Shown: positions 6,128-34,933, counted from the first letter of the stretch. The stretch: DNA of 64,000 bases from Bacteroidota bacterium (GCA_026992635.1 JALWYU010000108.1:28072-92071), one strand, 5' to 3'. Notes: generated from the letters alone by a model not told the origin. Program-made: numbers and translations.

Positions 6128-8689
6128 ATGAAGCACCCCCTTTCCATTACATCGGCGTCCATACCCCAGGCACTTCCTTCCATCCCTGGATGCACAACCT
6201 GCCTATCCCTATCCCTTCCAAAACCATACAGGTTGGAACACAGCCACTACGCCCATCAACCCAATGCAACGCTTTCCATCTTGCAAATTCTCTCTGACAG
6301 GCTGTACTGGAAAATCCCCACCACCATGATCGCAAAAGCGATCACCGGACATCCCTCCCTCAGCAGCCTTGTTCTGTTGTTTTTCCTCGCCTGGCACACC
6401 TTGCACGCCCAGACCATTCAGGGAAGAGTCGTAGACGCCCGAACCGGAAAACCTCTACCTTACGCACAGGTCTCCCTACTCACAATGGAAGACAGCCTCC
6501 TCAAAACAACTTTTGCCGACAGCACGGGATACTTCTCGCTCACCGCACCTGCCCCAAGTAAATTCCGGGTTAAAGTGCAGTTTTTTGGGTATACTCCTGC
6601 AACGGTGGAAGTCATCGCCTATCCCCGACGAAATACCACATTGGAAATCCCAATGAAAATCAGTTACAAGCAGTTGCCTGCCGTAACCATCCGGGAGCAC
6701 GACCAGCCCCATCGGAAAGCCGCAACCGACATCAGTCGCATCCGCCTCTACCCCTCACGAACACTCCGTTATGCCGGGACACTGGGCGATGCCATCCGAA
6801 CCGTCCAGACACTACCGTCCGTCTATACCGTTTCGGACATGCGCAACGACCTGGTGATTCGCGGAAACACACCCTGGGGCGTGCTCTATCGCGTAGAAGA
6901 CCTTGACGTGCCAAGCCCACACCACTTCTCCGAAGCAGGCATGAGTGCCGGACCTATCTCCATCCTGAATAACAACACCATTGCACACATGGACTTCTAC
7001 GCAGGCGCTTTCCCTCCGGAACTGGTTGGGGCTTACTCCGGCGCCTTTACCATCCAGCTTGCCCGGGGTAACTACACCCAGCACCAGGGCATCTTCCAGG
7101 TCGGATGGACCGGACTGGAATTCCTCTTAGAAGGACCCCTTCACTGGGCACGCCGTGCTTCCTATCTGGTTTCCTATCGCTATTCCTTCCTGGATTTTTT
7201 AAAATTGCTGGGTGTCCGCTTCGGCACCGCAGCCATTCCCCGATACCAGGACCTCACCTTTACCATTCATCTGCCCGGGAAGTGGGAAACTCGCCTCTGG
7301 GGTATCGGTGGACTCAGCACCATCTCCTTTGAGGAAATCCAGGAGCATGACCAACAGGGACTTACAGTTACAGGTTTAAACCTGGACTTCTCCACGCAGA
7401 CCGGTGCAACTGGCATCCGAACCGTGATCCCCCTGCCTGAGCCCGGGTATGGCACACTCGCAATGGGTGTAACCCATTCGGCGCATACCACTTCGCTGGA
7501 ACGCTGGGATTCCACAACCGGTACACTCCGCCCTCTGTACTACAATACCTATCGTACACAGACTTTCTCTACACACCTGAAAGGCGGCGTAGCACTCAAG
7601 CGTATCCACCTGCGTGGGGGTATCCTCCTGGACTATATACTCAGTCAAAACAACGACACCATTTATCTGGCGAATGGATTTCGTCAGAGCCGGCGATTTA
7701 AGGGGTCAGCCTGGCGTGCCCGTCAGTATCTTCAAGCGGAGTTCGGCTTCACAAGCCGGATGACGGTAACCACCGGATTCGCCACCCGGTATTTTAGTCT
7801 GCCACAGCGCAGTACTGTAGATGCCCATCTTTCTATGGAGGCATCCCTATCCCGAACCACCGAATTTCGTGCTGGATACAGTCTTTTGTCCTTAGAATTT
7901 CCCTTAGTCATTTATCAACTGACCGATCCCACTTTATCGGATTCGGTGGTTTATCCCTTTCGGGCTTTGCCCTTTATGCGCGCCCATCACGTTGTGGGCG
8001 AAATCCATCAGGCAATCGGAAACAACTGGCGTATTGTACTTGCCGCTTATGTTCAGCACCTGTGGAATATTCCCGTAGATGGTGATCGGCGCCTGGGCTG
8101 GTGGGCATTAATCACAGAAGGCCTGGAGTATGGTTTGCGCGTTCCCGTAGTACACCCCGTACCAGAGGGTATCGGCAGAAATACCGGAATTGAACTCACT
8201 GTTCAGCGCCGATTTGTCAAAGGTACCTACGCCCTTTTCACACTCTCCCTCTTTGATTCCAGATACAAAGCCATTGACGGAAACTGGTATCCCACACCTT
8301 ATAACGGCAACTTTGTTACCAACCTGCTGTGGGGCACGGAATTTCCCATTCGGCACTCGGCATGGACCGGCATCATTGACCTGCGCCTCTTCTGGACTGG
8401 AGGACGACGACACCATCCCATTGATACACCGGCAACCCTTCAGGCAAAACAAATTGTGTGGGATTATTCACAGCCGTTTGCCCGACGCGTGCCCAACTAT
8501 TTTCGGCTGGACCTGAAAATCGGGCTACGCCTCTCTAAGAAAGTTTCCCAGGAATGGCTCCTCTATCTGCAAAATGTAACAAACCATAAAAACATCTACT
8601 CGTATGAATTCTCAACAGTCCAGAACAAAATTATTCCTGTCTATCAGATGGGGTTCATCCCGGTGATGCTCTATCGGTTGTTGTGGTAA
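6128..8689 (+). CDS. TonB-dependent receptor-like outer-membrane beta-barrel with an N-terminal carboxypeptidase-regulatory-like domain
   Basis: Signal peptide at an internal Met (MIAKAIT...FLAWHTLHAQT, about 6326). IQGRVVDARTGKPLPYAQVSL matches the CarbopepD_reg fold. A plug-like segment (DLVIRGNTPWGVLYRVEDLDV) is present, and the terminal residue is W. Confidence 0.7.
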   Translation: MKHPLSITSASIPQALPSIPGCTTCLSLSLPKPYRLEHSHYAHQPNATLSILQILSDRLYWKIPTTMIAKAITGHPSLSSLVLLFFLAWHTLHAQTIQGRVVDARTGKPLPYAQVSLLTMEDSLLKTTFADSTGYFSLTAPAPSKFRVKVQFFGYTPATVEVIAYPRRNTTLEIPMKISYKQLPAVTIREHDQPHRKAATDISRIRLYPSRTLRYAGTLGDAIRTVQTLPSVYTVSDMRNDLVIRGNTPWGVLYRVEDLDVPSPHHFSEAGMSAGPISILNNNTIAHMDFYAGAFPPELVGAYSGAFTIQLARGNYTQHQGIFQVGWTGLEFLLEGPLHWARRASYLVSYRYSFLDFLKLLGVRFGTAAIPRYQDLTFTIHLPGKWETRLWGIGGLSTISFEEIQEHDQQGLTVTGLNLDFSTQTGATGIRTVIPLPEPGYGTLAMGVTHSAHTTSLERWDSTTGTLRPLYYNTYRTQTFSTHLKGGVALKRIHLRGGILLDYILSQNNDTIYLANGFRQSRRFKGSAWRARQYLQAEFGFTSRMTVTTGFATRYFSLPQRSTVDAHLSMEASLSRTTEFRAGYSLLSLEFPLVIYQLTDPTLSDSVVYPFRALPFMRAHHVVGEIHQAIGNNWRIVLAAYVQHLWNIPVDGDRRLGWWALITEGLEYGLRVPVVHPVPEGIGRNTGIELTVQRRFVKGTYALFTLSLFDSRYKAIDGNWYPTPYNGNFVTNLLWGTEFPIRHSAWTGIIDLRLFWTGGRRHHPIDTPATLQAKQIVWDYSQPFARRVPNYFRLDLKIGLRLSKKVSQEWLLYLQNVTNHKNIYSYEFSTVQNKIIPVYQMGFIPVMLYRLLW

Positions 8690-17039: not shown

Positions 17040-18686
17040 ATGGCAACCGTCTGGACAACCTCCTCAGCCTGCTGGAAACAGGTATTTGCCATTGGACGCC
17101 ATCGCCACCACAACCCGCTCTCAGCAGGACTTTACCTGGTGCTCCTCATGCTGAGCGGTTTTCACCTCCTTGCCACCGTTCCAAAATTCGGGCTCAGCCA
17201 GCAAAACGAAACGACACAAACTCCGGGTAGCTTTCCTGCCTTCTGTCCGGGCGACAGCTGTGCCAGTGCCATCCCGCTGAGTGGCTCATCCGGCTCCTAC
17301 ACCTACAGCACAACAAATTGTACACATGACTATTCGGGCAGTTGCGGTGGGACGGGTCCCGATAAGGTCTTTCGCCTGTGGCTGAACGCTGGCGACACAC
17401 TCAGGTACTGGATTTCCAGCAATAACTACGATGTACTCACGTATGTGCGTGTGGGCAGCTGCACGGGCGCCGAAGTGGTTTGCCACGACGACCCGGACAA
17501 CGCCGTCATCACCTGGGTCAACACCACGAACACCAGCCAGTACGTCTACATTTTCGTGGATGGCTTTGCCAACAGTTCGGGTTCGGGCACACTGAACTGG
17601 CAAATCAGTTCGTCCGCTTCGGCATGCCCCGGCGATGTGTGCGCGGATTTCGTCCCGTTAAGTGGGACGTCGGGCACCTACTCCTATTCCACAACCAGCT
17701 GCAACCACGATTATTCGGGAAGTTGCGGTGGGGCGGGTCCCGACCGTGTCTTCCGACTGCTGGTACCCAGCGGCTACACCCTCACCTACTGGGTTACCAA
17801 CGACAACTACGACGTACTCACCTACCTCCGTGTGGGCAACTGCAGTACGGGCACAGAAGTGGCTTGCCACGACGACCCCGACACCGCCACCGTCTCCTGG
17901 ACAAACAACACGGGCTCCGACCAGTACGTCTTCCTGTTCATAGACGGGTTTGGCTCCAGTTCAGGTTCGGGCGTACTGAACTGGCGGATTACACCACCCG
18001 GTGGTAATGCCTGTCCGGGCGATGCCTGCTCCGACTATGTAGATCTGGCTGCCTACTCGTCGGGCTCCTACGACTACACCACCACGTCCTGTACGCACGA
18101 CTACACCGGTGGATGCGGAGGCGTGGGTCCGGACCGCGTCTTCCGACTGTACGTACCCCGGGGCGACACCCTCCGCTACTGGATTACCAACGACGACTAC
18201 GACGTTCTCACCTATGTGCGTGTGGGCAGTTGCACGGGCACCGAAGTGGTCTGCCACGACGATCCGGACAACGCCGTCGTCACCTGGGTCAACACAACCA
18301 ACTTAGACCTGTTCGTCTACCTCATCATAGACGGATACGGAACGACCAATGGGTCCGGGTCAGGCACCCTGAACTGGCGGATCACCTCAGGAGTGTGGAC
18401 CAGTACGCCATCCCTCGCACAGCCCAGCTCTTCCCAGCCTATCTATATCTGGCAACACAACAACCAGCTGTACGTCAAGGCAGACGCTGCACAAACACAA
18501 ACGCGCTACTACACCCTCCAGATGTACACGCTGGCGGGTGTGCGCGTCCACCAGTGGCAACTCACACTGCGCCCCGGCGAAATCACCATCCTGAACCTGA
18601 AAGGACTGAGTGCAGGCGCATACATTGCACGAGTCCACACCGAAGAGGGTGAACAGGTTCTGGCGGAACCCATCATAATTGAGTAA
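17040..18686 (+). CDS. T9SS-secreted protein with three tandem ~125-aa Cys-rich beta-sandwich (PPC-like) repeats and a type A C-terminal sorting domain
   Basis: CPGD(S/V/A)C...YSTT(N/S)C(T/N)HDY(S/T)G(S/G)CGG.GPD(K/R)VFRL...YDVLTY(V/L)RVG.C...CHDDPD... occurs three times. The C-terminus YYTLQMYTLAGVRV...GAYIARVHTEEGEQVLAEPIIIE matches the Por/T9SS CTD pattern. Confidence 0.7.
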   Translation: MATVWTTSSACWKQVFAIGRHRHHNPLSAGLYLVLLMLSGFHLLATVPKFGLSQQNETTQTPGSFPAFCPGDSCASAIPLSGSSGSYTYSTTNCTHDYSGSCGGTGPDKVFRLWLNAGDTLRYWISSNNYDVLTYVRVGSCTGAEVVCHDDPDNAVITWVNTTNTSQYVYIFVDGFANSSGSGTLNWQISSSASACPGDVCADFVPLSGTSGTYSYSTTSCNHDYSGSCGGAGPDRVFRLLVPSGYTLTYWVTNDNYDVLTYLRVGNCSTGTEVACHDDPDTATVSWTNNTGSDQYVFLFIDGFGSSSGSGVLNWRITPPGGNACPGDACSDYVDLAAYSSGSYDYTTTSCTHDYTGGCGGVGPDRVFRLYVPRGDTLRYWITNDDYDVLTYVRVGSCTGTEVVCHDDPDNAVVTWVNTTNLDLFVYLIIDGYGTTNGSGSGTLNWRITSGVWTSTPSLAQPSSSQPIYIWQHNNQLYVKADAAQTQTRYYTLQMYTLAGVRVHQWQLTLRPGEITILNLKGLSAGAYIARVHTEEGEQVLAEPIIIE

Positions 18687-22189: not shown

Positions 22190-23194
22190 TTGGGAACTTT
22201 CCTGTTCAACCTTCTTTTTCTTCCAAAAAACTCCTGGTTGCGAAAAGGCGGGCACCCAGCCAAACACGCACTGACCATGGATAACGACCCATTCGCCCTG
22301 GCAGACGTCCGGTGGGCGACCACCCTCTACCAGCTCATCCGAACCGTAGACCTGGAAGCCCTCCTCTTCATAGACATAGAAACCGTGCCCGAGTACAACA
22401 GCTACGACGAACTGAAAAAACACAATCCACGAAAAGCCCAGCTCTGGGAAGAGAAGTTTAACCATTCTACTCGCCTCCAGCAAAAATACCAGTCTGCCGA
22501 AGAAGCTTACATTCACGAAGCCGGCATCTTCCCCGAATTTGGCAAGGTCATTGTCATTGGCATAGGCGCTTACGCACGCAACACCGAGAACAACAAAAGC
22601 AGTGATTATCAGCTCCGTGTTCGGGTTGCGGGCTCCTCCGACGAACACAAACTCCTGAACGACTTTACCAGTCTCCTCAAGCAAGGAGGACGCTTCCCAC
22701 GGCGCACCCAGGTCTGGCAAAACCAGAATGCAGCCCGACCTGCCCGCTTCCCCACCAACGCTCTTTACTTAGTTGGGCACAACATTCGCGAGTTTGACGT
22801 GCCTTTCTTAGCGCGTCGCCTCCTCATTGCCAATCAGGAGCTCCCTCCCCTCCTCCAGATTGCCGGAATGCGCCCCTGGCAAATCCTCCACCTCATTGAC
22901 ACAATGGAACTCTGGCAGTTTGGCGACCAGCGCGGATACATCTCCTTAGACCTGCTCACCTGCACCTTAGACATCCCTTCGCCCAAACAGCATATGCGCG
23001 GCAAAGACGTATTCACCTATTATCTGCAGGGCAAGTGGGAGGACCTTCTCAACTATTGCGCACAAGACGTCATTGCCCTGGCTCAGATCGTACGCCGCTT
23101 CCAGGGCATGCAACTTCTGGATATCAACAAGGACATTGATATCCAGCGAGTCAACCTGGACGAATCGGACAAGAACGACGAGGAGAACAAATAA
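22190..23194 (+). CDS. predicted 3'-5' exonuclease related to the PolB exonuclease domain (DEDD-type)
   Basis: FIDIETVP (Exo I), LVGHNIREFDVPFL (Exo II) and YCAQDVIALAQI (Exo III, YxxxD). The probable start is MDNDPF at about 22277. Confidence 0.7.
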   Translation: MGTFLFNLLFLPKNSWLRKGGHPAKHALTMDNDPFALADVRWATTLYQLIRTVDLEALLFIDIETVPEYNSYDELKKHNPRKAQLWEEKFNHSTRLQQKYQSAEEAYIHEAGIFPEFGKVIVIGIGAYARNTENNKSSDYQLRVRVAGSSDEHKLLNDFTSLLKQGGRFPRRTQVWQNQNAARPARFPTNALYLVGHNIREFDVPFLARRLLIANQELPPLLQIAGMRPWQILHLIDTMELWQFGDQRGYISLDLLTCTLDIPSPKQHMRGKDVFTYYLQGKWEDLLNYCAQDVIALAQIVRRFQGMQLLDINKDIDIQRVNLDESDKNDEENK

Positions 23195-23197
23195 CCT

Positions 23198-24268
23198 TCA
23201 CCGGGCAGACCGAACCCGCGCATGCACAATTTGCAGGCGTAACTCTGGCGTGTGCATCAATTCACGGGTTAGCCACCGGGCAAACTCCTCATAAGGCATA
23301 CCTGGCGGCACATACCGGTAAAGGGGGACTTTCAAGCGGGGGAGGGCAAAGGGCTTGGTGCTGAACACTAAGAACAGTGTGAGGATGCCATGGGCATCCC
23401 GCGAATAATACCAGGAGCCTTCCTCTGGCTCGTCAAATAAAACATGCTCGCCCGAAGATAATTGTGCAGGGGCAGTCAGGTCGCCGCCCAGCGGATAAAT
23501 CAAATACACCGAATCACTGGCGTAACTCCCTATGAACACCGCCAGATAACCCGATTCCAAAAGCCGAAAACGCAAATACAGAGGATCGCCCTCAAGAAAC
23601 GTTTCCCGCGCAACAAAATCTTCATACTGGCAGGGGGCACGCGGACACGCTACCAGTGCCAGCTCCCGTGCCGGTAAGTGCGTCCGCTCACGCGGCAACT
23701 CACAGAACTCCGCACGAATCCGACAAGTGAACTGCGGAACGTCCCCTGTGCACGTCATCACTATGCGGTCCTCCAGCAACCGGCGTAGCAAAAAGTACGA
23801 AGAAACCTGCAGATGTTCCACGGCAACCTGCTCGTCCCGCTGGCCACTCCTTAAATACGTCATGCTCCCAAACAGAAATTGAACCTCCGAAGGCGCATAC
23901 ACCAAGGCATTTTTTATCGCTTCCGAACGACACACACTCTTTGCCTGACGTAGCGTCTGGTCTTCTTCCATTGTGGTTTGCGCCTCACCCTGATACACCT
24001 CACAGCGCATCTTACGGGAAGACGAAGACGTACTGCCCGACCCAACCCCTCCACCACTCTGTGCACCTGAAGAGTACGAGGCAGTAGCAGAGGGCGACGA
24101 CGAACCCATCTCACCCCCCGAGCCCGCACCAGAAGAAGACGACGATGAGACAGAACTCAGCATCCAGCAACCCACCAAAAACGCCAAACCCGAAACCACC
24201 AGCTTCTGAAGCATCCACAGAAATTTTTTATGGCTGAAGAAACGCCAGGACAGGTTGTGCCTCCTCAC
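23198..24268 (-). CDS. hypothetical secreted/membrane protein with a Ser/Gly-rich linker; C-terminal region possibly DUF4384-like
   Basis: N-terminal TM/signal segment (LVVSGLAFLVGCWMLSS), a ~60-aa S/G-rich low-complexity stretch, and a C-terminal beta-rich region (GYLAVFIGSYASDSVYLIYP). It is the last gene of the caspase operon and overlaps the upstream gene by 41 nt. Confidence 0.5.
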   Translation of the reverse strand: MRRHNLSWRFFSHKKFLWMLQKLVVSGLAFLVGCWMLSSVSSSSSSGAGSGGEMGSSSPSATASYSSGAQSGGGVGSGSTSSSSRKMRCEVYQGEAQTTMEEDQTLRQAKSVCRSEAIKNALVYAPSEVQFLFGSMTYLRSGQRDEQVAVEHLQVSSYFLLRRLLEDRIVMTCTGDVPQFTCRIRAEFCELPRERTHLPARELALVACPRAPCQYEDFVARETFLEGDPLYLRFRLLESGYLAVFIGSYASDSVYLIYPLGGDLTAPAQLSSGEHVLFDEPEEGSWYYSRDAHGILTLFLVFSTKPFALPRLKVPLYRYVPPGMPYEEFARWLTRELMHTPELRLQIVHARVRSAR

Positions 24269-24989
24269 CCCAGCGCTCCGTCAGCCGCCTGCCAAACTGC
24301 GTGAGCAATGCCTGGCGCTCTACAGCCAGCGTAATCATGCTTTCACACTGGTTTTTCCGACAGCGCGTCAGATACACTACCCCTTCAAAAGGAACATACA
24401 CCACGAGCCGATACCGTTCATCCTCATCCCATAACGTATTGACCATCTGGTAAAAAAGCTCACGGGGCGGAGGCGAATTGCTCTCCACAAACAGGCGCAT
24501 TAACTCCCCATAAAACCGCGAAAGCAACATATTCACTGCGTCGGTGGTCGCCATCTTTACGGCTTCCTGAACCGAAGCACCCTGCCCCACACCCTCACCC
24601 AATAGATACACAGGACGATTCGCACTATCGCGCGCCAGCCGATATTCCGTGGCTGTACAAATCTGGACGCGCAAAGGTGGCATGCCCGTAACAGATGCCC
24701 AGCCCGCCTGCTTCAACAGGGACGCCTCCCGACGACAAACCGCCTGCTCAACCGACGCCCGACCCGGCGCATACACCTTGATACCCCCCACCTGAAACAG
24801 CAATTTTCTTGCTGACGTGGACGTGTCCCCACCCACCTCAAACAACTCCTTTTCCTGTGAAGCCAGATCCGGCATATTTCCTGCGTCCGGCGTACGAAAA
24901 CCCGGCAAAAACCCAACTATACCCATACCCACCACAAAAAGAAGAGCCCACCGGACACCAACCCGACCGACTGACCAACCACCACCCAT
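24228..24989 (-). CDS. hypothetical secreted protein, LPP20-like (tentative)
   Basis: Signal/TM N-terminus. Contains a ...LLGEGVGQGASVQEAVKMATTDAVNML... pattern reminiscent of LPP20-family lipoproteins. This identification is from memory of the family and is unverified. Confidence 0.45.
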   Translation of the reverse strand: MGGGWSVGRVGVRWALLFVVGMGIVGFLPGFRTPDAGNMPDLASQEKELFEVGGDTSTSARKLLFQVGGIKVYAPGRASVEQAVCRREASLLKQAGWASVTGMPPLRVQICTATEYRLARDSANRPVYLLGEGVGQGASVQEAVKMATTDAVNMLLSRFYGELMRLFVESNSPPPRELFYQMVNTLWDEDERYRLVVYVPFEGVVYLTRCRKNQCESMITLAVERQALLTQFGRRLTERWGEEAQPVLAFLQP

Positions 24990-24997
24990 CTCCCCTT

Positions 24998-25654
24998 CTA
25001 TTCTTCGTCGGGAAACGCTTCCTGCTCCAGCCTGTCCAGTTCCTCCTCAAGAGAACGGGCACGCATACGCAAAAACATATACAGGGTTTGCCGGGCAATC
25101 TCTTCTAAGGTTTGCGAAGGAAAGGCGTAGACGAGCCAGACATCCACCTGGGCAGGGTTCCTGGCAAGGTCCCGTTCACGAACCGCCGCCACCACCGGTT
25201 CACTGGCCGCCATTCGTTGCGCCAGAATCTGACGTGCTTGCTCCTCTAAAAGAAGTTTCTGTTCGTCAGGACGTAAATTGCCCCGGGTAGATTCCAGAAT
25301 GTGCGCGAGAAATGTCTGGTATGCTTGCTGGCGTGCCGTCCGAAACGCCTCGGAAAACGTACCGGAGGCACGTCCCTCACCAAACACATATCCCCCCCGC
25401 TTTTGCATTCGGTAGTAGCGACAGACCTCCTGCTGAAGCGAACCCCACAGACCATGCCAGCCTTCCTGGTAAAGACTTCTTGCCTGGTGCACACAGGATT
25501 TTTTCGCTGCAGGTGGTGCCCAGCCAGCCAGCCCCACCAGAAGCCCACCCATCACCCAGGCAACCAGAACAATCCAGCGCATGACCAGAACCCTTTTAAG
25601 AACTTTCACGTCCGCTGTACCCCTACTCTTTTCGTTTTCTACCGGGCGACGCAC
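24998..25654 (-). CDS. hypothetical secreted protein, LPP20-like (tentative), paralogous in pattern to 24228..24989
   Basis: TM/signal (MRWIVLVAWVMGGLLVGLAGWA), then ...VFGEGRASGTFSEAFRTARQQAYQTF... The C-terminal half is a charged coiled-coil-like region. It overlaps the caspase gene's end by 32 nt. Confidence 0.45.
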   Translation of the reverse strand: MRRPVENEKSRGTADVKVLKRVLVMRWIVLVAWVMGGLLVGLAGWAPPAAKKSCVHQARSLYQEGWHGLWGSLQQEVCRYYRMQKRGGYVFGEGRASGTFSEAFRTARQQAYQTFLAHILESTRGNLRPDEQKLLLEEQARQILAQRMAASEPVVAAVRERDLARNPAQVDVWLVYAFPSQTLEEIARQTLYMFLRMRARSLEEELDRLEQEAFPDEE

Positions 25655-28600
25655 CCGGGATCAGCGGAAACGCCCGCCACACCGGATCCGAATAATGCGT
25701 CACCACGGTTGGCGTCTGCTCTTGACCACGTAACAGCACTTTCCCGAGGGTTTCCATCGTCTGATAGAGCGAATCATACATTGTGCCTAAGGTGAGCGCT
25801 TCAATTTGCCGGCTTTGCTCATGGAGCGTGGCAAGCCATGCATAGGTGAACAATCCGTGCCCTAAGGCATCCGGCGCATACGCACGCTGGTCCCGCGTCA
25901 CCGCACTGAACAGAATGGCGTTCTTCTTGGGAAGTATAGCGGTTTGCCCCTGCTGAATCGGCGGACCTGCCCAGGAAACCGCTTTCTCCTGTGGCGTCTC
26001 CGCACCCGTATAACAGGCATCCACAAAAAGAAGGATCCGTTCGGCTTTGGCTTTACTGAGCCGATCTACAATCTCGGCAATAGAAATCAACCCCATAGAA
26101 GGTTCAATAGGTGACAGATCCACCGGGACAAACGAGGGTTGTTTCGTGCCGGGATGCGGTAACCCATGCCCCCGATAGTAGAAAAAGATGTAGGAAGCAT
26201 TTTGCGCACGCTGGGCAAACTCCTGAAGCGCTTTCCGAAATTGCATTGCCGTCAGGTTCTTGTACAGGAATACGTAATTGGGCGGAATACCCAATACCGC
26301 CTGGAAGTATTTGGCGACGAGCTCGCCATCGCGCTCGGCAAACTTCAGGTCGTACCCTCCCATGTAATCCTGATTGACAATGACCAGGGCATAGCAATTG
26401 GGGCAGGTGGCTTGCGTCGCCGGCACCTGCGCCAGATTGATCGGCTGGAAAGGTAACGCCTCCCGCAAATTAATTCGCAGATGCATGGGCTTGCCACTCA
26501 CATCCGTCACCTTGAGGAGGAGCGCCTCGTCCAGTCCCGGCTTCAAGCGCATACCAAAGGAGATCTGTACCGAGCTGGCTGGTCCCAGCAGATCTATTTC
26601 TTTTGGCTGGGGTGCCGACAGGTAAAGCTGATTCCGATAGGCGGGGGGCACCACCAGCGCTAAGCGCAATCCGCGGGCAACCACACTCCCTTCATTCACC
26701 AGGTTCAAATACACACGGACGTACTCATTGGGCTCGGCAATCTGGTTCTGGTTGCCGCTGACTTCCTGAATGTGCGAGACCACCACTTTCAGGTCAGGTT
26801 GCCGATACGGACGAACGCGCAAGGTCAGACGATTCGCATGATCTTCACTGAACTGCTTGGCGCGCAATCCAATAGACAGACGCGTTTCACATTCCTGACC
26901 GTGCAGGCTTTGGGGCTTGAGGGCAATTTTAAACGTGTGCGTTGCACCCGGTGCCAAATACGCCAGACGCAACGTCTCCGCACGAATGCACAGGGGTTCT
27001 GGCGAAAGAATCACGCGCACATTCCGTGCGGCGCCCTGCCCCGTATTCTGCACCCGAACATGCAGAAGTACTTTCTCGTATTCGTCTATGATGTCATCTG
27101 ACCACGTTTCCTCCACAAAAACCGTATCCAGATGAAGGTAAGGTGGATAGCGTGAAGCCCAGAACTGCATGGTTTTGAGCTTATTCTCCAGGACTTCACC
27201 CGAAGCCATACAGGGATGATTCCGCATATGGGGTACAGTTGGCGCGAGAAACCAGCGAGCACTGTCTTCTATTCGGAAAGCGTATCCAATGGGTATGGTG
27301 TCCCCCTCCCAGTTGAGCCCCCAAACGGCGTAAGCCTGCGTCTCATGCCAGCGCGCCTTAAACTGGCGGGCTTCCTCTAAGGGAATATACAGGCGAAGCA
27401 ATTGTCCGTCAATCTGCGCAGGAAAGAACTGTTCATCAGGATTGTAACGCTCCACCTGCTGGATCGTCGCAGGCTCCAGCATACAGTAGTGGACCAGGCG
27501 TTTCTGTGCCAGCTCATACGCATTCTCTAGGAATGACCGCCACGTAGAACAGGCAAGCTGGCGCGCACGACGCCGACGTGCTTCATATTCCTGGCGGGGC
27601 TCAAACTCGCCACGGGGCGCAAACAACTGGGCGTGCGCACGCCACACCGCCTGCAAACTGTCCTGGAGGAACGTCGCCAGAATATGCATCCGCATGTGTT
27701 TGTCGTGCAGTTGTTCACGTATACAGGCTTCTGGCGAAGGACTGACTCCCCTGACAACCTGAACACAACACTTGTGAATCAACGCGTCGGAAACCGACAA
27801 CCACTCCGTAAGCAAATCCGAACAATAAGTTTGCAAAATCGTATCGGACATGTGCATAAAGATGGTGGGTGTCATCCGGTGAAGGGGATACAGGAAGACG
27901 CGTGCCTGATCGCCCGCCACCGCCAGCCATAAACCCTGTGGAGCAAATGCTAAGGTATGCACAGTGGTCAGAGGCGTCTTGAGCGTTTCTACCGTAAGCG
28001 ACATGGGCTGGACTTTCCATCGGGGACGACGACGCCTGCCCCGACGGGAAACTTCCTGATATTGAGCCCGTTGCTTCTGACGCTGAAGATCCCGTTCAAA
28101 ATTCCATAAAAAGACCATGTGGCTTTCGCCACCCACCGCTAAGATCCTGCCCGTCGGATCTAAAGCCAAGGCACGAACACGTGCCGGACTGAACTCCGAA
28201 AAAGAAAAGGTCAGGAGCTCCCGGGCTTGCACTTGGGTACCCACGCGATCCGCAAGCACACGCCACAAATAGACGTCCCCATCACTGCCCCCCGAAAAAA
28301 GCATTGCCCCATCGGAAGTCCACACTAATGCATGCACCCAGCCCAAATGCGCGGAGATCTTTCCCAGATAAAGGATGCTGTCCAGGTGTTCCGTGTCCAG
28401 ATAAAGAATATGAATGTTGCCGGTGTGGGCGCCTACCGCCAGAAGCTTCCGCTGAGAGGTATAGCTCATTGCCGTGAGCCAGAGCCAATCCCCCAGACCA
28501 ATGGTTTTAATCAGCTGGCGCGTCCGCGCATCGCGCACCTCCAGCACGCCATCCTCCCTGCCCAAAAGGAAAATCCGATTCAGCGCAAGAACCGCCGTGT

Positions 28601-29087
28601 ACTGCAGTTGCGTTTTCAGGTCAGGAATAAAAAATGTGCCACTGCCCTGTTTCCAGTAGCGGACCTGCCCATTCGTAAGCAAAACAAGGAAATAATCCCC
28701 TCGCGGAGAGGGACTGACCTTCCGAATGGACTGGGCAAACGCCCGATGGACAAACGGATGGAGGTTGGGCACTTTCCCTTTCCAGACGTTGATGCCTCCG
28801 GGACGCGTCACCGCCACAAACCAGTCTTTGCACGGCAGGAAAAACACGGATTGGACGGGCGCACCCTCTGTGCCACGGACCGCGCGCGTCGTGAGCGTAA
28901 CGGCTTCTTCCATAGACCGGGCGTCCGAAGCAGACGCCACAGCCCGATACCCCACCAGAGAGACATACATCCAGAAAGCCACACCAAACATCAGCAATCG
29001 CACCAGAAATCCCCTGCTGCAGGAACTGGGTGACCAGCCCAATTGCGTGCCCCTGAGTTTTCCTGGCTTTTCTTCTCTGGGTGGCAT
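25623..29087 (-). CDS. large membrane-anchored WD40-repeat protein with a C-terminal caspase-like (peptidase C14) domain
   Basis: N-terminal TM segment (FLVRLLMFGVAFWMYVSLVG) and WD40-like repeats (GHTGNIHILYLD..., SGGSDGDVYLWRV, ...LWNF). C-terminal caspase hallmarks: YALVIVNQDY, FFYYRGHG (catalytic His-Gly) and ILLFVDACYTG (catalytic Cys). Confidence 0.8.
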   Translation of the reverse strand: MPPREEKPGKLRGTQLGWSPSSCSRGFLVRLLMFGVAFWMYVSLVGYRAVASASDARSMEEAVTLTTRAVRGTEGAPVQSVFFLPCKDWFVAVTRPGGINVWKGKVPNLHPFVHRAFAQSIRKVSPSPRGDYFLVLLTNGQVRYWKQGSGTFFIPDLKTQLQYTAVLALNRIFLLGREDGVLEVRDARTRQLIKTIGLGDWLWLTAMSYTSQRKLLAVGAHTGNIHILYLDTEHLDSILYLGKISAHLGWVHALVWTSDGAMLFSGGSDGDVYLWRVLADRVGTQVQARELLTFSFSEFSPARVRALALDPTGRILAVGGESHMVFLWNFERDLQRQKQRAQYQEVSRRGRRRRPRWKVQPMSLTVETLKTPLTTVHTLAFAPQGLWLAVAGDQARVFLYPLHRMTPTIFMHMSDTILQTYCSDLLTEWLSVSDALIHKCCVQVVRGVSPSPEACIREQLHDKHMRMHILATFLQDSLQAVWRAHAQLFAPRGEFEPRQEYEARRRRARQLACSTWRSFLENAYELAQKRLVHYCMLEPATIQQVERYNPDEQFFPAQIDGQLLRLYIPLEEARQFKARWHETQAYAVWGLNWEGDTIPIGYAFRIEDSARWFLAPTVPHMRNHPCMASGEVLENKLKTMQFWASRYPPYLHLDTVFVEETWSDDIIDEYEKVLLHVRVQNTGQGAARNVRVILSPEPLCIRAETLRLAYLAPGATHTFKIALKPQSLHGQECETRLSIGLRAKQFSEDHANRLTLRVRPYRQPDLKVVVSHIQEVSGNQNQIAEPNEYVRVYLNLVNEGSVVARGLRLALVVPPAYRNQLYLSAPQPKEIDLLGPASSVQISFGMRLKPGLDEALLLKVTDVSGKPMHLRINLREALPFQPINLAQVPATQATCPNCYALVIVNQDYMGGYDLKFAERDGELVAKYFQAVLGIPPNYVFLYKNLTAMQFRKALQEFAQRAQNASYIFFYYRGHGLPHPGTKQPSFVPVDLSPIEPSMGLISIAEIVDRLSKAKAERILLFVDACYTGAETPQEKAVSWAGPPIQQGQTAILPKKNAILFSAVTRDQRAYAPDALGHGLFTYAWLATLHEQSRQIEALTLGTMYDSLYQTMETLGKVLLRGQEQTPTVVTHYSDPVWRAFPLIPGASPGRKRKE

Positions 29088-29174: not shown

Positions 29175-30128
29175 TCATTCACGGATGACACGAATTTCCA
29201 CGCGCCGGTTCCGGGCGCGCCCCTCGGGCGTGCCATTATCGGCAATGGGCTGATACTCGCCATAACCTCGCGCAATCAGTCGTTCAGGGTCAATTCCCTT
29301 CTGGATGAAGTAGTTGCGCACAGCCTCGGCACGCCGCCGCGAAAGATACAAGTTGTATTGCTCGGAGCCCACACTATCCGTATGCCCCGCAATTTCCACA
29401 ACCATCGTGGGGTGCTCCTTCAAATACTGGACCCATCTGTCCAAGATGGGATAGGATTCGGGCAAAATCCGTGCCTCATTAAAAGCGAACTTCACGCCTT
29501 CCAGAGGAATGGTTCGCTTGTAAATCGTGTCTACAAAAAGCTGAATGGTGAATTCAATGGTTACGGGTCCGTTCCACCGGTCAATCTGGAGGGGCTTATT
29601 GGTTTCCAGCCACTGGTTTAACGCAAAGACTTTCACGGTGTAGGTTTTTCCCTGGGGAACAACTAAAGTAAAGCGCCCTGCCGTGTCCGTCCGCGCTGTA
29701 TACCTTCGGGTGGGTTGGGCGCCTCCCTGCCCGCTCGTCTGGGGAATCAACCGGATGCGTGCACCTGGAAGGGGTACGCCATGCTCGTCAATGAGCAAGC
29801 CCTGAATCGTCGCACTCTGTGCATAAAGTGGAACAGAAAACATTGTGAATACAAGCAAGCCCGCTGCCAAACCCAGTACGTTGCGCCACCAGCAGGTACG
29901 TAAACCCACGAAAAACAACATAGGGACGATTGCTGAGTAAAAACGCATGGTTTTTGCCTGATTTGTTTCGTGGGGATGGTCTACTTTGAGGGTAAACAGG
30001 GAAAAAATCGGAAGGGTTCCATGGCGGAGTACGACGTGATTATCGTGGGTGCAGGTCCTGGCGGATATGTGGCTGGTATCCGCGCGGCCCAGCTGGGGTT
30101 GAAGACGCTCGTAGTAGAAAAAGCCCAT
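29175..30128 (-). CDS. OmpA-family outer-membrane protein with a carboxypeptidase-regulatory-like N-domain
   Basis: C-terminal OmpA_C signature (VVEIAGHTDSVGSEQYNLYLSRRRAEAV...RNRRVEI). CarbopepD_reg-like TIQGLLIDEHGVPLPGARIRL. The probable start is MRFYSAIVPM (about 29945). Confidence 0.8.
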   Translation of the reverse strand: MGFFYYERLQPQLGRADTSHISARTCTHDNHVVLRHGTLPIFSLFTLKVDHPHETNQAKTMRFYSAIVPMLFFVGLRTCWWRNVLGLAAGLLVFTMFSVPLYAQSATIQGLLIDEHGVPLPGARIRLIPQTSGQGGAQPTRRYTARTDTAGRFTLVVPQGKTYTVKVFALNQWLETNKPLQIDRWNGPVTIEFTIQLFVDTIYKRTIPLEGVKFAFNEARILPESYPILDRWVQYLKEHPTMVVEIAGHTDSVGSEQYNLYLSRRRAEAVRNYFIQKGIDPERLIARGYGEYQPIADNGTPEGRARNRRVEIRVIRE

Positions 30129-32605: not shown

Positions 32606-34933
32606 ATGGTCATAGGGAGGATCCTCTTGACAGGCATCCCCTTAACCACCCTCCTGCTCTCCACACTCACCACACACGCCAACAACTGTTCCTCACCCAT
32701 TTCCATCAACTCCTTCCCCTACACGTACAGTGGCACGCTCTGTGGTGCCGGCGACAACTTTCCCGCTCCCCTTTGCGGACAGACTGGGTGGGGTGCTTCT
32801 GAAGACATGGTCTTCGTTGCCAACCTCCAGGCAGGCGCCACCTACGAAATCACTGTAACTGTGGGCAGCGGCAATGCCGGTGCCTTCCTCTTCCAGACGT
32901 GCGACCCTAACGCCTGCATCATCTCATTGACATCCAACGCCAGCTCTGCTACGTGGTGCGTCACCATTCCCAGCTCCGGCACCTGGTATATTGTGGTGGA
33001 TCGCGACGCCGCCGGGTGCTCCACCTTCTCCCTGAATATCGTTGAAGACGTCGCACCACCCACAGGCTGGTCTATGTTCAACGGAACCATTAATACCTGC
33101 TCTGGCACCCTTTATGACCCCGGTGGCCCCAATTGCAACTACGGTGATAACCAGTATGCCCAAACCGTCATCTGTCCCACTACACCAGGGCAATGCATTC
33201 AGCTGGACTTCACTTCCTTTGACCTGGAAAACACCTTTGATTACCTGGATGTCTATGATGGCGATGAATGCGCCAATACACCCATCGCCAGCTACACCGG
33301 AAACACCAGCCCAGGCACTGTAACCGCAACCGGACTTTATGGAAATGGCTGCCTTACACTGGTGTTCTCTTCCGACGGCTCCGTCAATTATACCGGTTTT
33401 TCCGCCAACATTTCCTGTGTACCCTGCAGTGCCTCACCCATCAGTGGTTCCACCGTCAATATGCAATCCGGCATCTGGTACACGTGCGGAGGCACTTTCT
33501 ATGATTCTGGTGGACCCCTCAACGACTACAGCAACAACGAAGACTACACCCTCGTGATCTGCCCCTCTACACCAGGACAATACATCACAGTCAATTTCAC
33601 CTCCTTCAACATAGAAAACAATTTTGACTACCTTTACATCTACGACGGCATTGGAAGTTGCGGTACTTGTCTGGGAGAATTCACCGGCACCACCTCGCCC
33701 GGTACCATCACCGCCTCTTCATCCAATGGATGCCTCACATTCCAGTTTCAGAGCGACGGAAGTATTACATATCCCGGATGGCAGGCAACCATCTCGTGTT
33801 CTTCCACGCCAGGCGCCAATACATCCACTGGATCTTCCTGTCTGACACCGCTCTGTCTGCTCAACACCAACTCAGGCACTTACACCCCATTCAACACACT
33901 TTGTGGTGACTCCTGGAACTTCCCAGCCTGTGGGGGCTGCCCCTCCTTCAATAACGTGGACTATCCCTACTTCTTCACATTCACGATTGCTTCCGGCGGC
34001 ACCCTCCTCTTCACCATCACACCCTCTGGAACCCACGACTTAGACTGGGCACTGTGGCAAATCCCCGATCCCTACGACTGCTCATCGCTGGGTCCACCCA
34101 TTCGTGCCTCCTGGGATGCACCCCCACCCTACTCTACAGGGCTTGCTGTAGGCGAAACCGATGTGTGCGAATGCGCCAGTGGCAGTGGATACGTAGCACC
34201 GCTCACTGTCAATGCCGGCGAGTCCTATCTGCTGGTCATAAACGATTGGTCCGCACCCCCACCTGAGGATTTCACCCTGGACTTCACCGGAACCACTGCC
34301 ACCTTCTCCAATAACACAGACGACTGCCCATCTAATGTACTTCCCCTGGCATTCATCAAGATGGAAGCCCATCCTCAAAAAGAGGGAATTGAACTCACCT
34401 GGTACGGCATCGCCCCCGAAGGCATAGACGGCAGAATCCAGATCTGGAAAGAATCGCCCGACAACCCCAAAGCCAGACAAAAAATCCATGAACGCCTCGC
34501 CAACCCCGGACCCTTCCAGGGCTCATTCATAGACTACACCCCGGAGACACCAACCCCAACAAGCCCTGCCATGCATGTTTACCGGATCGTCCTCTATGAC
34601 GTGGCACGCCATGCGACCATCGCCGAAGACCGAATCGTCGTCACCCAAAACGCAACCACTCCAGGCTCCATCTCCTACACACTGGGCACCGGATACATCC
34701 AGCTCCTGATCTCCGGAACAGGTGAACAACCCCCAACATACCTCAGACTCTATAGCCTGGATGGCAAAACCCTCTGGCAATGGAATACTCAGCGCTGCGG
34801 TATCAAAACCCGAAACCCCAACACCTACACATTCCGAATCCCCACACACAACCTCCAGCAGGGAATCTACCTCCTGGAAGTGGAATGGCTCTCAGGACAA
34901 CGATCCCACGAACGCATCATACTCACACCTTAA
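32606..34933 (+). CDS. T9SS-secreted protein with an N-terminal Cys-rich PPC-like domain, two CUB domains and a type A C-terminal sorting domain
   Basis: CUB-like segments: CSGTLYDPGGP.C.YGDNQYAQTVICPTTPGQCIQLDFTSFDLENTFDYLDVYDGDEC...GFSANISC and CGGTFYDSGGP...FDYLYIYDG...GWQATISC. Signal peptide present. The C-terminus GIYLLEVEWLSGQRSHERIILTP resembles the Por CTD. Confidence 0.7.
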   Translation: MVIGRILLTGIPLTTLLLSTLTTHANNCSSPISINSFPYTYSGTLCGAGDNFPAPLCGQTGWGASEDMVFVANLQAGATYEITVTVGSGNAGAFLFQTCDPNACIISLTSNASSATWCVTIPSSGTWYIVVDRDAAGCSTFSLNIVEDVAPPTGWSMFNGTINTCSGTLYDPGGPNCNYGDNQYAQTVICPTTPGQCIQLDFTSFDLENTFDYLDVYDGDECANTPIASYTGNTSPGTVTATGLYGNGCLTLVFSSDGSVNYTGFSANISCVPCSASPISGSTVNMQSGIWYTCGGTFYDSGGPLNDYSNNEDYTLVICPSTPGQYITVNFTSFNIENNFDYLYIYDGIGSCGTCLGEFTGTTSPGTITASSSNGCLTFQFQSDGSITYPGWQATISCSSTPGANTSTGSSCLTPLCLLNTNSGTYTPFNTLCGDSWNFPACGGCPSFNNVDYPYFFTFTIASGGTLLFTITPSGTHDLDWALWQIPDPYDCSSLGPPIRASWDAPPPYSTGLAVGETDVCECASGSGYVAPLTVNAGESYLLVINDWSAPPPEDFTLDFTGTTATFSNNTDDCPSNVLPLAFIKMEAHPQKEGIELTWYGIAPEGIDGRIQIWKESPDNPKARQKIHERLANPGPFQGSFIDYTPETPTPTSPAMHVYRIVLYDVARHATIAEDRIVVTQNATTPGSISYTLGTGYIQLLISGTGEQPPTYLRLYSLDGKTLWQWNTQRCGIKTRNPNTYTFRIPTHNLQQGIYLLEVEWLSGQRSHERIILTP

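Follow-up and report, generated by a model that had tools for sequence, protein, structure and literature searches.

The 64,000-nucleotide stretch of Bacteroidota bacterium DNA analysed here (GCA_026992635.1, JALWYU010000108.1:28072-92071), referred to as the window throughout, encodes on its minus strand a caspase-type protease of peptidase family C14 and three smaller proteins, which we call p1, p2, and p3. The four open reading frames (ORFs) are all co-directional and fill positions 23198-29087. Directly upstream lies a gene for a protein with a CarboxypepD_reg domain (CRD) and an OmpA_C domain. The window locus is one member of a widespread system, in which the fused WD40-CARDB-C14 protein and the duplicated genes for LPP20-fold proteins are a local variant. 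In the direction of transcription, the genes are as follows.

29175-29948, minus strand: protein with a CRD and a peptidoglycan-binding OmpA_C domain, predicted to be exported; likely start M61 at 29948, the ORF reaching 30128
25623-29087, minus strand: caspase-type protease ORF, 1154 aa, or 1126 aa from a GTG (V29) at 29003 according to the public gene call
24998-25654, minus strand: p1 ORF, 218 aa (public gene call: 194 aa, starting at M25, 25582); predicted exported LPP20-fold protein that has a conserved Cys pair and, at its N-terminus, one signal or anchor segment
24228-24989, minus strand: p2 ORF, 253 aa; p1 paralogue that has four Cys and begins with a signal or anchor segment
23198-24268, minus strand: p3 ORF, 356 aa

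A preliminary description of this DNA had reported a four-gene cluster with the caspase motifs YALVIVNQDY, FFYYRGHG, and LLFVDACYTG, all of which are present, the first beginning at aa 899 of the large protein. It had also spoken of three overlapping downstream genes. p2 and p3 do overlap, by 41 bp, and so do the caspase gene and p1, by 32 bp, if p1 is read from its GTG start; but p1 and p2 are separated by 8 bp, and with M25 as the start of p1 the caspase/p1 junction becomes a 41-bp gap. A large protein identical to that of the window (P0001) is present in public assemblies, and proteins identical to the locus products occur on one NCBI contig and in two other assemblies. A scan of the locus for promoters and terminators was uninformative, the consensus used being ill-suited to Bacteroidota.

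The large protein is composed of the following parts.

28929-29003, minus strand: putative signal peptide, aa 29-53, (V/M)RLLMFGVAFWMYVSLVGYRAVASA, then SD; the sole hydrophobic 19-mer of the protein, with V29 as the public start
27888-28910, minus strand: WD40 beta-propeller, aa ~60-400, from Pfam, WD40 matches in the PDB, and the WD40 modules of other exported caspases
27159-27887, minus strand: unnamed middle region, aa 401-643, no Pfam domain
26433-27158, minus strand: two CARDB-like immunoglobulin-fold domains, aa 644-885, from Pfam and alignment with relatives
26394-26405, minus strand: CxxC motif CPNC, aa 895-898, immediately N-terminal to the first strand of the caspase domain
25698-26393, minus strand: Peptidase_C14 domain, aa 899-1130, Pfam PF00656
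26166-26168, minus strand: catalytic His974 of the caspase dyad, in FFYYRGHG
26013-26015, minus strand: catalytic Cys1025 of the caspase dyad, in LLFVDACYTG

The Peptidase_C14 and WD40 assignments of the preliminary description were both borne out by Pfam. PF00656 matches with 72.6 bits (cut-off 21.4, E 5e-20, model positions 3-225 of 233) and WD40 (PF00400) with 57.8 bits (cut-off 27) within aa ~120-330, while many beta-propeller models cover aa 117-332. His974, Cys1025, Asp920 (ERD), and Asp1023 (D-A-C) are invariant across eight aligned orthologous protease domains, and the C14 domain has its catalytic residues intact. The columns of Asp920 and Asp1023 we take, after metacaspase structures, to be those of the specificity pocket. 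In characterised non-metazoan C14 enzymes, an acidic pocket with two conserved aspartates leads to cleavage after Arg or Lys (PMC5756287, PMC6426788); since both pocket aspartates are likewise invariant here, we predict Arg/Lys specificity. No NTPase domain of the NACHT, NB-ARC, or STAND type was found in the large protein with Pfam.

The ~450-aa middle region, formerly regarded as uncharacterised, turned out to be so in part: aa 644-885 make up two CARDB-like domains, while aa 401-643 match no Pfam model. A search confined to aa 640-896 gives the CARDB model 28 bits (cut-off 22.7), spread over two stretches, and a search of the full protein gives it 22.0 bits; the region aligns with its counterparts in P0036, L032, L043, L046, and others (L numbers denote loci, P numbers proteins). 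Within the unnamed part, aa ~485-585 show weak conservation among other large exported caspases, with BLASTP matches (E 4e-8 to 9e-3) in the corresponding place of L060, L079, L081, L085, and others. This region is not the TPR arm of the Bacteroidales caspases described below, as it shows no similarity to their TPR N-termini, nor does it resemble the separate WD40 proteins of Bacteroidales. A specific orthology of the WD40 region to these WD40 proteins is unsupported as well, the similarity being generic. The CxxC motif has a counterpart, CERC, in the L003 orthologue and is missing in the Bacteroidales orthologues; the motif could be a hint of redox control. In a word-indexed search, WD40 proteins crowded out other matches of the full large protein, which recovered itself alone; with aa 330-1154, one genuine relative, P0036, came up. 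In P0036, the only other full-length relative, thioredoxin-like domains stand in place of the CxxC motif.

The N-terminus of the large protein, previously taken for a transmembrane anchor, looks like a cleavable Sec signal peptide and not like a permanent anchor. Read from GTG V29 it is MRLLMFGVAFWMYVSLVGYRAVASA followed by SD, with a cleavage site of the A-x-A type that can be read directly from the sequence, and all orthologues found elsewhere start with a signal peptide too.

p1 and p2 are evidently paralogues: their profiles align with an hhalign probability of 93% (E 3.5e-7), and they have in common the pattern C...R.L...GW...PPL..Q[VI]C ... Y[VL].GEG.G.G...EA...A...A. The Cys pairs of both are kept between the window and its distant relative. 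Among 1.84 billion representatives, phmmer found one distant homologue each, P0041 for p1 (33%) and P0040 for p2 (43% identity), and p1-p3 together gave direct matches to 12 proteins. The small unannotated proteins of other caspase loci are relatives of p1 and p2 (E 1e-5 to 5e-24). A profile of seven sequences of this family reached 2047 proteins at E <=1e-3, mostly 'hypothetical' proteins of 205-214 aa from Prevotellaceae and Bacteroidaceae; among the 120 matches listed of these 2047, no Pfam domain is on record. p1 and p2 themselves have no match in Pfam, NCBIfam, or PADLOC. Scans of genome and metagenome collections with a p2 alignment found nothing, and sequence searches of the PDB with p1, p2, p3, and the family profiles gave nothing meaningful.

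At the level of structure, p1 can be placed. An AlphaFold2 model from a 17-sequence alignment is confident (predicted local distance difference test, pLDDT, 86.2; predicted template-modelling score, pTM, 0.72) and consists of a three-stranded sheet flanked by helices, as in the LPP20 fold. When this model was compared with 350,542 chains by Foldseek, 5ok8 took ranks 1 and 2 (E 0.011, probability 0.94), with a probability of at most 0.23 for the next match. Two methods agree on the LPP20 fold as the top structural match of p1 in the PDB, a remote one with template-modelling scores of 0.45-0.49. The preliminary description had associated p1 and p2 with LPP20-type lipoproteins. Its GEG...EA...A...A motif is real, and the association has support at the level of the fold, but no match to the LPP20 model (PF02169) was obtained at E up to 1 for p1 or p2, nor for nine relatives (P0040, P0041, three proteins from Bacteroidota, and four from metagenomes), and both proteins are without a lipobox cysteine despite their hydrophobic N-terminus. 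p1 and p2 are thus best described as LPP20-fold proteins rather than members of the LPP20 family, the similarity being structural and remote.

The last protein of the locus, the lipoprotein p3, is divided as follows.

24167-24178, minus strand: lipobox LVGC34, from the sequence
24017-24157, minus strand: Ser/Gly tether, aa 38-84, ~47 aa, with RKMR at its end, from the sequence
23654-24016, minus strand: N-domain, aa 85-205, between tether and DUF4384
23351-23599, minus strand: divergent DUF4384 beta-sandwich, aa 224-306, from Pfam and relatives
23201-23350, minus strand: conserved C-terminal F..WL helix and strand, from the family alignment

A C-terminal beta region resembling DUF4384 had been suspected in p3, and this agrees with our findings. 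The match to DUF4384 (PF14326) covers model positions 2-81 of 81 at 15.2 bits (E 0.023), below the cut-off of 27. Relatives score higher, with 26.6 bits for the L003 orthologue, 27.3 bits for P0047, and 49.9, 51.4, and 56.9 bits for p3-family genes beside metagenome caspases, and this supports the assignment of p3 as a divergent DUF4384 protein. In its structure model the DUF4384 part is all-beta (pLDDT 76-89). The N-domain was considered as a second LPP20-like domain and this was ruled out, with an hhalign probability of 2% against the p1/p2 family and an unreliable model in that part. The Ser/Gly linker, earlier given as 60 aa, is present and measures about 47 aa. This tether varies in length and sequence between near-identical strains: p3 has 356 aa in the window and 338 aa in L010 (2776-3792), and P0037 is 95% identical to p3 overall with a different linker.

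The upstream gene lies on the same strand, 88 bp ahead of the caspase ATG. From M61, its product begins with the predicted signal peptide MRFYSAIVPML...VPLYAQ, cleaved before S, and Pfam finds CarboxypepD_reg at aa 107-194 (37 bits) and OmpA (PF00691) at aa 214-308 (95.2 bits, cut-off 27.2). Its CRD matches the CRD of L008 (E 4e-4). Because the five-gene operons of Bacteroidales presented below contain a CRD protein, the gene is probably a fifth component of the system.

As the preliminary description had it, the partner proteins carry signal or membrane segments: hydropathy places one hydrophobic segment in each of the caspase, p1, p2, and p3, always at the N-terminus. In the Bacteroidales and metagenome versions of the system, every component starts with a signal peptide. 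Since all products bear export signals, we infer that the caspase and all its partners work outside the cytoplasm, in the periplasm, tethered to the wall or a membrane.

The association of the four gene families recurs in relatives. A distant relative, L003 (GCA_027048935.1, 2993 bp), holds the end of a C14 gene, a p1 homologue, a p2 homologue, and then a convergent DUF4384 gene on the opposite strand; identities to the window are 34% for C14 (E 4e-50), 33% for p1, 43% for p2, and 36% for p3 (E 3e-26). P0040 directly follows the p1 homologue in both L003 and L004. Among the loci reached through p3 relatives, nine had enough DNA to be informative, and in 9/9 a C14 gene stands beside the p3-family gene: L003, L007/L014 (Saprospiraceae), L008, L009, a JGI contig, L015 (Odoribacter), L016 (Alloprevotella), L018 (Lepagella), and L019 (Muribaculaceae). 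In addition, 80 metagenome loci were taken by their caspase domain alone and scanned with custom hidden Markov models (HMMs). A p3-family gene was found in 30 of the 80 and a p1/p2-family gene in 9; 23 of the 30 p3 genes share the strand of the caspase gene and are -36 to +10 bp away from it. Where at least 2.5 kb were available on both sides, 9 of 19 loci have a p3-family gene. The DUF4384 protein p3 is a standing genomic partner of this caspase clade, and LPP20-fold proteins often accompany it.

The relatives also show how the parts are arranged. L008, L015, and L016 have a five-gene operon in the order WD40 (~700-800 aa), TPR-C14 (~675 aa), CRD (CarboxypepD_reg with a tail resembling an outer membrane protein (OMP) barrel, ~240 aa), p3-family, and p1/p2-family, with a signal peptide on all five products. 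The order in the window, CRD-OmpA_C, WD40-CARDB-C14 fusion, p1, p2, and p3, is a rearrangement of the same domain types. Ten metagenome caspases were checked with Pfam. Five consist of signal peptide, WD40, and C14 (L020, L022, L032, L056, and L076), and the other five carry CARDB N-terminal to the caspase, Peptidase_C14 being listed for L028, L029, L046, and L080, and the caspase of L042 being matched by the custom HMM alone. Further exported caspases with WD40 first were seen by BLAST. Placing WD40 before the caspase is the normal order within this exported, NTPase-free clade. The preliminary description had noted the opposite order in other bacterial caspase-WD40 proteins. This holds for the widespread cytoplasmic metacaspase-NACHT-WD40 type (PMC3501461), but the layout is common in the clade rather than odd.

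Several features of these loci bear on the role of the system. On a conserved protease core, the N-terminal modules are swapped between WD40, TPR, WG_beta_rep, CARDB only, and thioredoxin-like. Tandem caspase duplicates occur within single loci (L007/L014, L032, L084, and L046), and the LPP20-fold gene is doubled in the window and in L003. L008 and L012 have different upstream cassettes although their flanking LPP20-like genes are 86% identical. At L015 3663-4877, directly upstream of the five-gene operon of an Odoribacter metagenome-assembled genome, lies a gene for a tyrosine recombinase with Phage_integrase, Arm, and SAM-like domains, and WD40 proteins of different Bacteroidales families have an unexpectedly high identity of 59-65%.

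Some of these loci deserve mention on their own account. In the Saprospiraceae metagenome-assembled genome of L007/L014 (1155-5788), the two proteins are both of the WG_beta_rep and C14 type and are 39% identical to each other. In gut Bacteroidaceae (L012 5913-12968 and L013), the p1/p2-family gene P0110, which is 86% identical to that of L008, belongs to another operon. Upstream of it are genes for a PEGA and FGE-sulfatase protein, a 406-aa protein, and a 190-aa protein; downstream follow a 591-aa protein with the N-terminal LPP20-like motif GEGRG..AEADRNALADL and a 475-aa protein with a transglutaminase-like Cys/His motif. Set beside L008, the arrangement suggests that a cassette was exchanged at a common locus. 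In L025, the LPP20-like, DUF4384, and WD40-C14 genes are directly preceded by a gene of the same orientation for an OmpR-type response regulator (6607-7317). A 159-aa ORF without Pfam match follows the caspase gene in L025 (10822-11301) and L061 (7399-7878).

The surroundings in the window tell about the host. A 947-aa protein (51033-53876, minus strand) ends in a C-terminal CHU_C type IX secretion signal, and an 809-aa protein (47565-49994, minus strand) combines CarboxypepD_reg with an OMP beta-barrel; both are marks of a Bacteroidota-type host that has a type IX secretion system (T9SS). With the CHU_C protein and the genes alaS, secDF, lpdA, and ribF in the window, the stretch is therefore chromosomal DNA of such an organism. 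The GC skew is below zero in nearly all 2-kb bins of positions 1-64000, the plus strand being C-rich with a cumulative skew to -4.1. Convergent on the end of p3, a gene on the plus strand (22190-23194) encodes a protein resembling PolB-type 3'-5' exonucleases (DNA_pol_B_exo2, E 4.8e-9), which holds the same place beside p3 in other assemblies of the same organism. Two more genes on the plus strand encode exported proteins. One (17040-18686) yields a 548-aa protein with three Cys-rich internal repeats of ~150 aa (CPGD.C...HDY.G.CGG.GPD..FRL...) and no Pfam match at E 1e-5; the other (32606-34933) yields a secreted 775-aa protein with two CUB domains (Pfam E 1.3e-21), which are uncommon in bacteria.

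Taken together, we tentatively read the locus as a multi-subunit C14 protease system in the periplasm, whose role may well be, and is most likely, envelope surveillance or conflict. In such a system, the CRD-OmpA protein on peptidoglycan and the lipid-anchored p3 would hold the complex between the wall and a membrane. FlgP and FlgT, which are LPP20-fold proteins, build periplasmic discs (PMC11756786), and p1 and p2 might by analogy form an oligomeric scaffold. The WD40 propeller would catch a periplasmic ligand or substrate. p3 would dock on the protease via DUF4384 and act as regulator, adaptor, or substrate; for this there is some precedent in DUF4384-caspase fusions and in the pair Csx30/Csx29, as DUF4384 occurs elsewhere in fusions with caspase domains and with those of other proteases (PMC6426788, PMC7475262) and is the C-terminal domain of some Csx30, the substrate of caspase-like Csx29 (bioRxiv 10.1101/2022.08.17.504292). 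Once engaged, the caspase would cut after basic residues. Because the enzyme is predicted to be Arg/Lys-specific, the RKMR cluster at the end of the p3 tether is a candidate cut site, and one may speculate that the cut frees p3 from the membrane. The weakest step is the last, namely that the system is there to answer invasion of the periplasm or damage within it and does not serve routine housekeeping. Module swapping, tandem duplication, cassette replacement, the recombinase, and the similar WD40 proteins are hints that point to conflict or surveillance; the label 'signalling or conflict system', under which the locus was first described, is still one that we infer.

A number of observations weigh against this interpretation. 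The GC content of the locus (0.551) is native-like when compared with that of the window (0.539), and neither this nor the housekeeping neighbours ribF, lpdA, alaS, and secDF speaks for a conflict role. The closest WD40-caspase loci likewise have housekeeping flanks (nusA and rimP in L025, carA in L061), and such neighbours are equally compatible with a resident cellular function and with a role in conflict. These same two loci lack the CRD/OmpA gene, which may therefore be non-core, and in L012 and L013 the LPP20-like family occurs without a caspase. No toxin-like effector domain was recognised at the locus. With PADLOC, the locus components match no known defence system: p1-p3 have no match at all, and the large protein has weak generic ones, to a caspase model (E 5e-11) and to a HEAT-ARM repeat model (E 2.5e-7). 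The model of p3 is poor overall (pLDDT 60) with generic beta-sandwich matches only, and export signals were called by eye and hydropathy rather than by a dedicated predictor.

The main rival to a surveillance or conflict role is a housekeeping envelope maturation protease, which would trim or attach secreted or surface proteins while held on a scaffold that resembles PorE and is bound to peptidoglycan; p1-p3 would serve as its assembly factors or clients. In Bacteroidota, exported enzymes of clan CD, such as the gingipains and the T9SS sortase PorU, do trim or attach such proteins. The domain set of TPR and WD40 plus a CRD and OmpA_C equals the four domains of PorE (PMC12773672, PMC7192894), and the upstream gene matches the NCBIfam model T9SS_PorE (NF052230) with E 5e-30. 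However, this match amounts to 104 bits against a cut-off of 600 and covers positions 416-599 of 648 only, i.e., the CRD and OmpA part, and the likeness in domains is one of very common repeat and anchor modules. A T9SS cargo signal is present in the host in the form of CHU_C, but no T9SS gene adjoins the locus. Its native GC content and the housekeeping surroundings in the window, L025, and L061 would suit a maturation enzyme. For a core enzyme of that kind, on the other hand, module swaps, tandem duplicates, and cassette replacement between close relatives are unusual. The distribution is also patchy, p1-p3 having 12 direct matches among the 1.84 billion representatives. On balance we consider a maturation role rather unlikely, though deserving of serious attention.

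A cytoplasm-triggered anti-phage or abortive-infection system, of the STAND/NLR-caspase (NLR, nucleotide-binding leucine-rich-repeat) or gasdermin-activating type and with WD40 as the sensor of a phage protein, is considerably less probable. WD40 or TPR together with a caspase is a hallmark of NLR-like conflict proteins, and metacaspase-NACHT-WD40 is widespread (PMC3501461). Yet the large protein is devoid of a NACHT, NB-ARC, or STAND NTPase, its domain order is opposite to the NLR type, and the export signals on every component place sensor and protease outside the cytoplasm. The PADLOC caspase match mentioned above is weak, the NCBIfam model NF047832 ('caspase, EACC1-associated type') reaches 56.5 bits, far under its cut-off of 140, and no gasdermin-like or other effector gene was found at the locus with Pfam, NCBIfam, or PADLOC. 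The classic cytoplasmic NLR-caspase reading was rejected for its lack of an NTPase and the presence of export signals.

That the exported protease and the small envelope proteins are unrelated, uncoupled neighbours by chance is scarcely credible and already disfavoured: caspase-free operons with the LPP20-like family (L012 and L013) and the absence of the CRD/OmpA gene at the closest WD40-caspase loci would agree with it, but the same families recur side by side in genomes that have diverged widely, with gene order and strand varying, caspase and p3 genes are spaced by 4-10 bp or overlap in 23 loci, and DUF4384-caspase fusions exist in other lineages (PMC6426788, PMC7475262).

If the periplasmic surveillance or conflict system is carried to its furthest consequence, it would amount to a periplasmic equivalent of the apoptosome or of NLR-like caspase machinery, and the first to be recognised. 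In a complex tethered to wall and membrane, which is widespread in Bacteroidota and found in gut Bacteroidales too, a repeat-domain receptor would sense an invader or damage inside the envelope and activate an Arg/Lys caspase, the tether of the DUF4384 lipoprotein or other envelope proteins would be cut, and the outcome would be defence, self-destruction, or a transmembrane signal. In this extended form the proposal is doubtful, and we offer it as a bold conjecture.

The system is of interest beyond the question of its role. The bacterial caspase relatives that are understood are nearly all cytoplasmic and act in cell-suicide or immune pathways, while here the caspase and all its partners appear to be exported. 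It includes two partner families without assigned function, DUF4384 and the LPP20-fold family of more than 2000 proteins. Versions occur in abundant gut and oral Bacteroidales (Alloprevotella, Odoribacter, Muribaculaceae, and relatives in Prevotellaceae), and cultured relatives are genetically tractable. An envelope role of the caspase and the purpose of DUF4384 thereby become directly testable, with DUF4384 as a protease-docking or bait module as the working hypothesis.

Literature searches on DUF4384, Lpp20, prokaryotic caspase homologues, and PorE turned up no paper that describes the gene set or its partner family with the LPP20 fold, or that gives a function for them. Known systems resemble the gene set in parts. 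Prokaryotic orthocaspases and metacaspase-like C14 proteins with WD40, TPR, and FGE-sulfatase accessory domains have been surveyed (PMC3501461, PMC5756287). They share with the large protein the C14 fold, the His-Cys dyad, the acidic pocket, and repeat-type protein-binding modules on one chain. In some of them, a helix at the N-terminus had already been remarked on as a possible signal peptide. Prokaryotic caspase homologues that are exported or membrane-associated were noted earlier, and DUF4384 was listed as an occasional fused domain (both PMC3501461, PMC7475262). In contrast to the widespread caspase-NACHT-WD40 proteins, the protease is located C-terminal to the repeats here and there is no NTPase, a reversal that fits a separate exported lineage without NTPase. 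Moreover, the whole protein is predicted to be exported, and DUF4384 and LPP20-fold proteins are separate, co-conserved subunits.

Craspase (type III-E CRISPR) is similar in that the caspase-like Csx29 stands beside a partner, Csx30, which in some lineages has DUF4384. Csx30 is cleaved in a linker and a fragment is released (bioRxiv 10.1101/2022.08.17.504292). Craspase is, however, cytoplasmic, RNA-guided, and built on a CHAT-type protease, whereas the present locus has no CRISPR genes, a predicted envelope location, and a C14 protease, cleavage of p3 being hypothetical.

Like Lpp20 (HP1456), FlgP, and FlgT, p1 is a small exported protein of the alpha/beta type in which helices pack against a three-stranded sheet, and the G-x-G...A...A...A strand-helix motif is shared as well. 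p1 and p2 differ from them by their lack of a Pfam LPP20 match, a lipobox, and a flagellar context, and by extra N- and C-terminal helices.

PorE (PGN_1296), a periplasmic lipoprotein of the T9SS that is associated with the outer membrane, comes close in its domains: TPR, a WD40 propeller, CRD, and OmpA_C are found in both, and both are Bacteroidota-specific and, as predicted for the present system, periplasmic. PorE, however, carries the four domains on one chain and has no protease, whereas the system described here spreads them over two or three proteins and joins them to a caspase.

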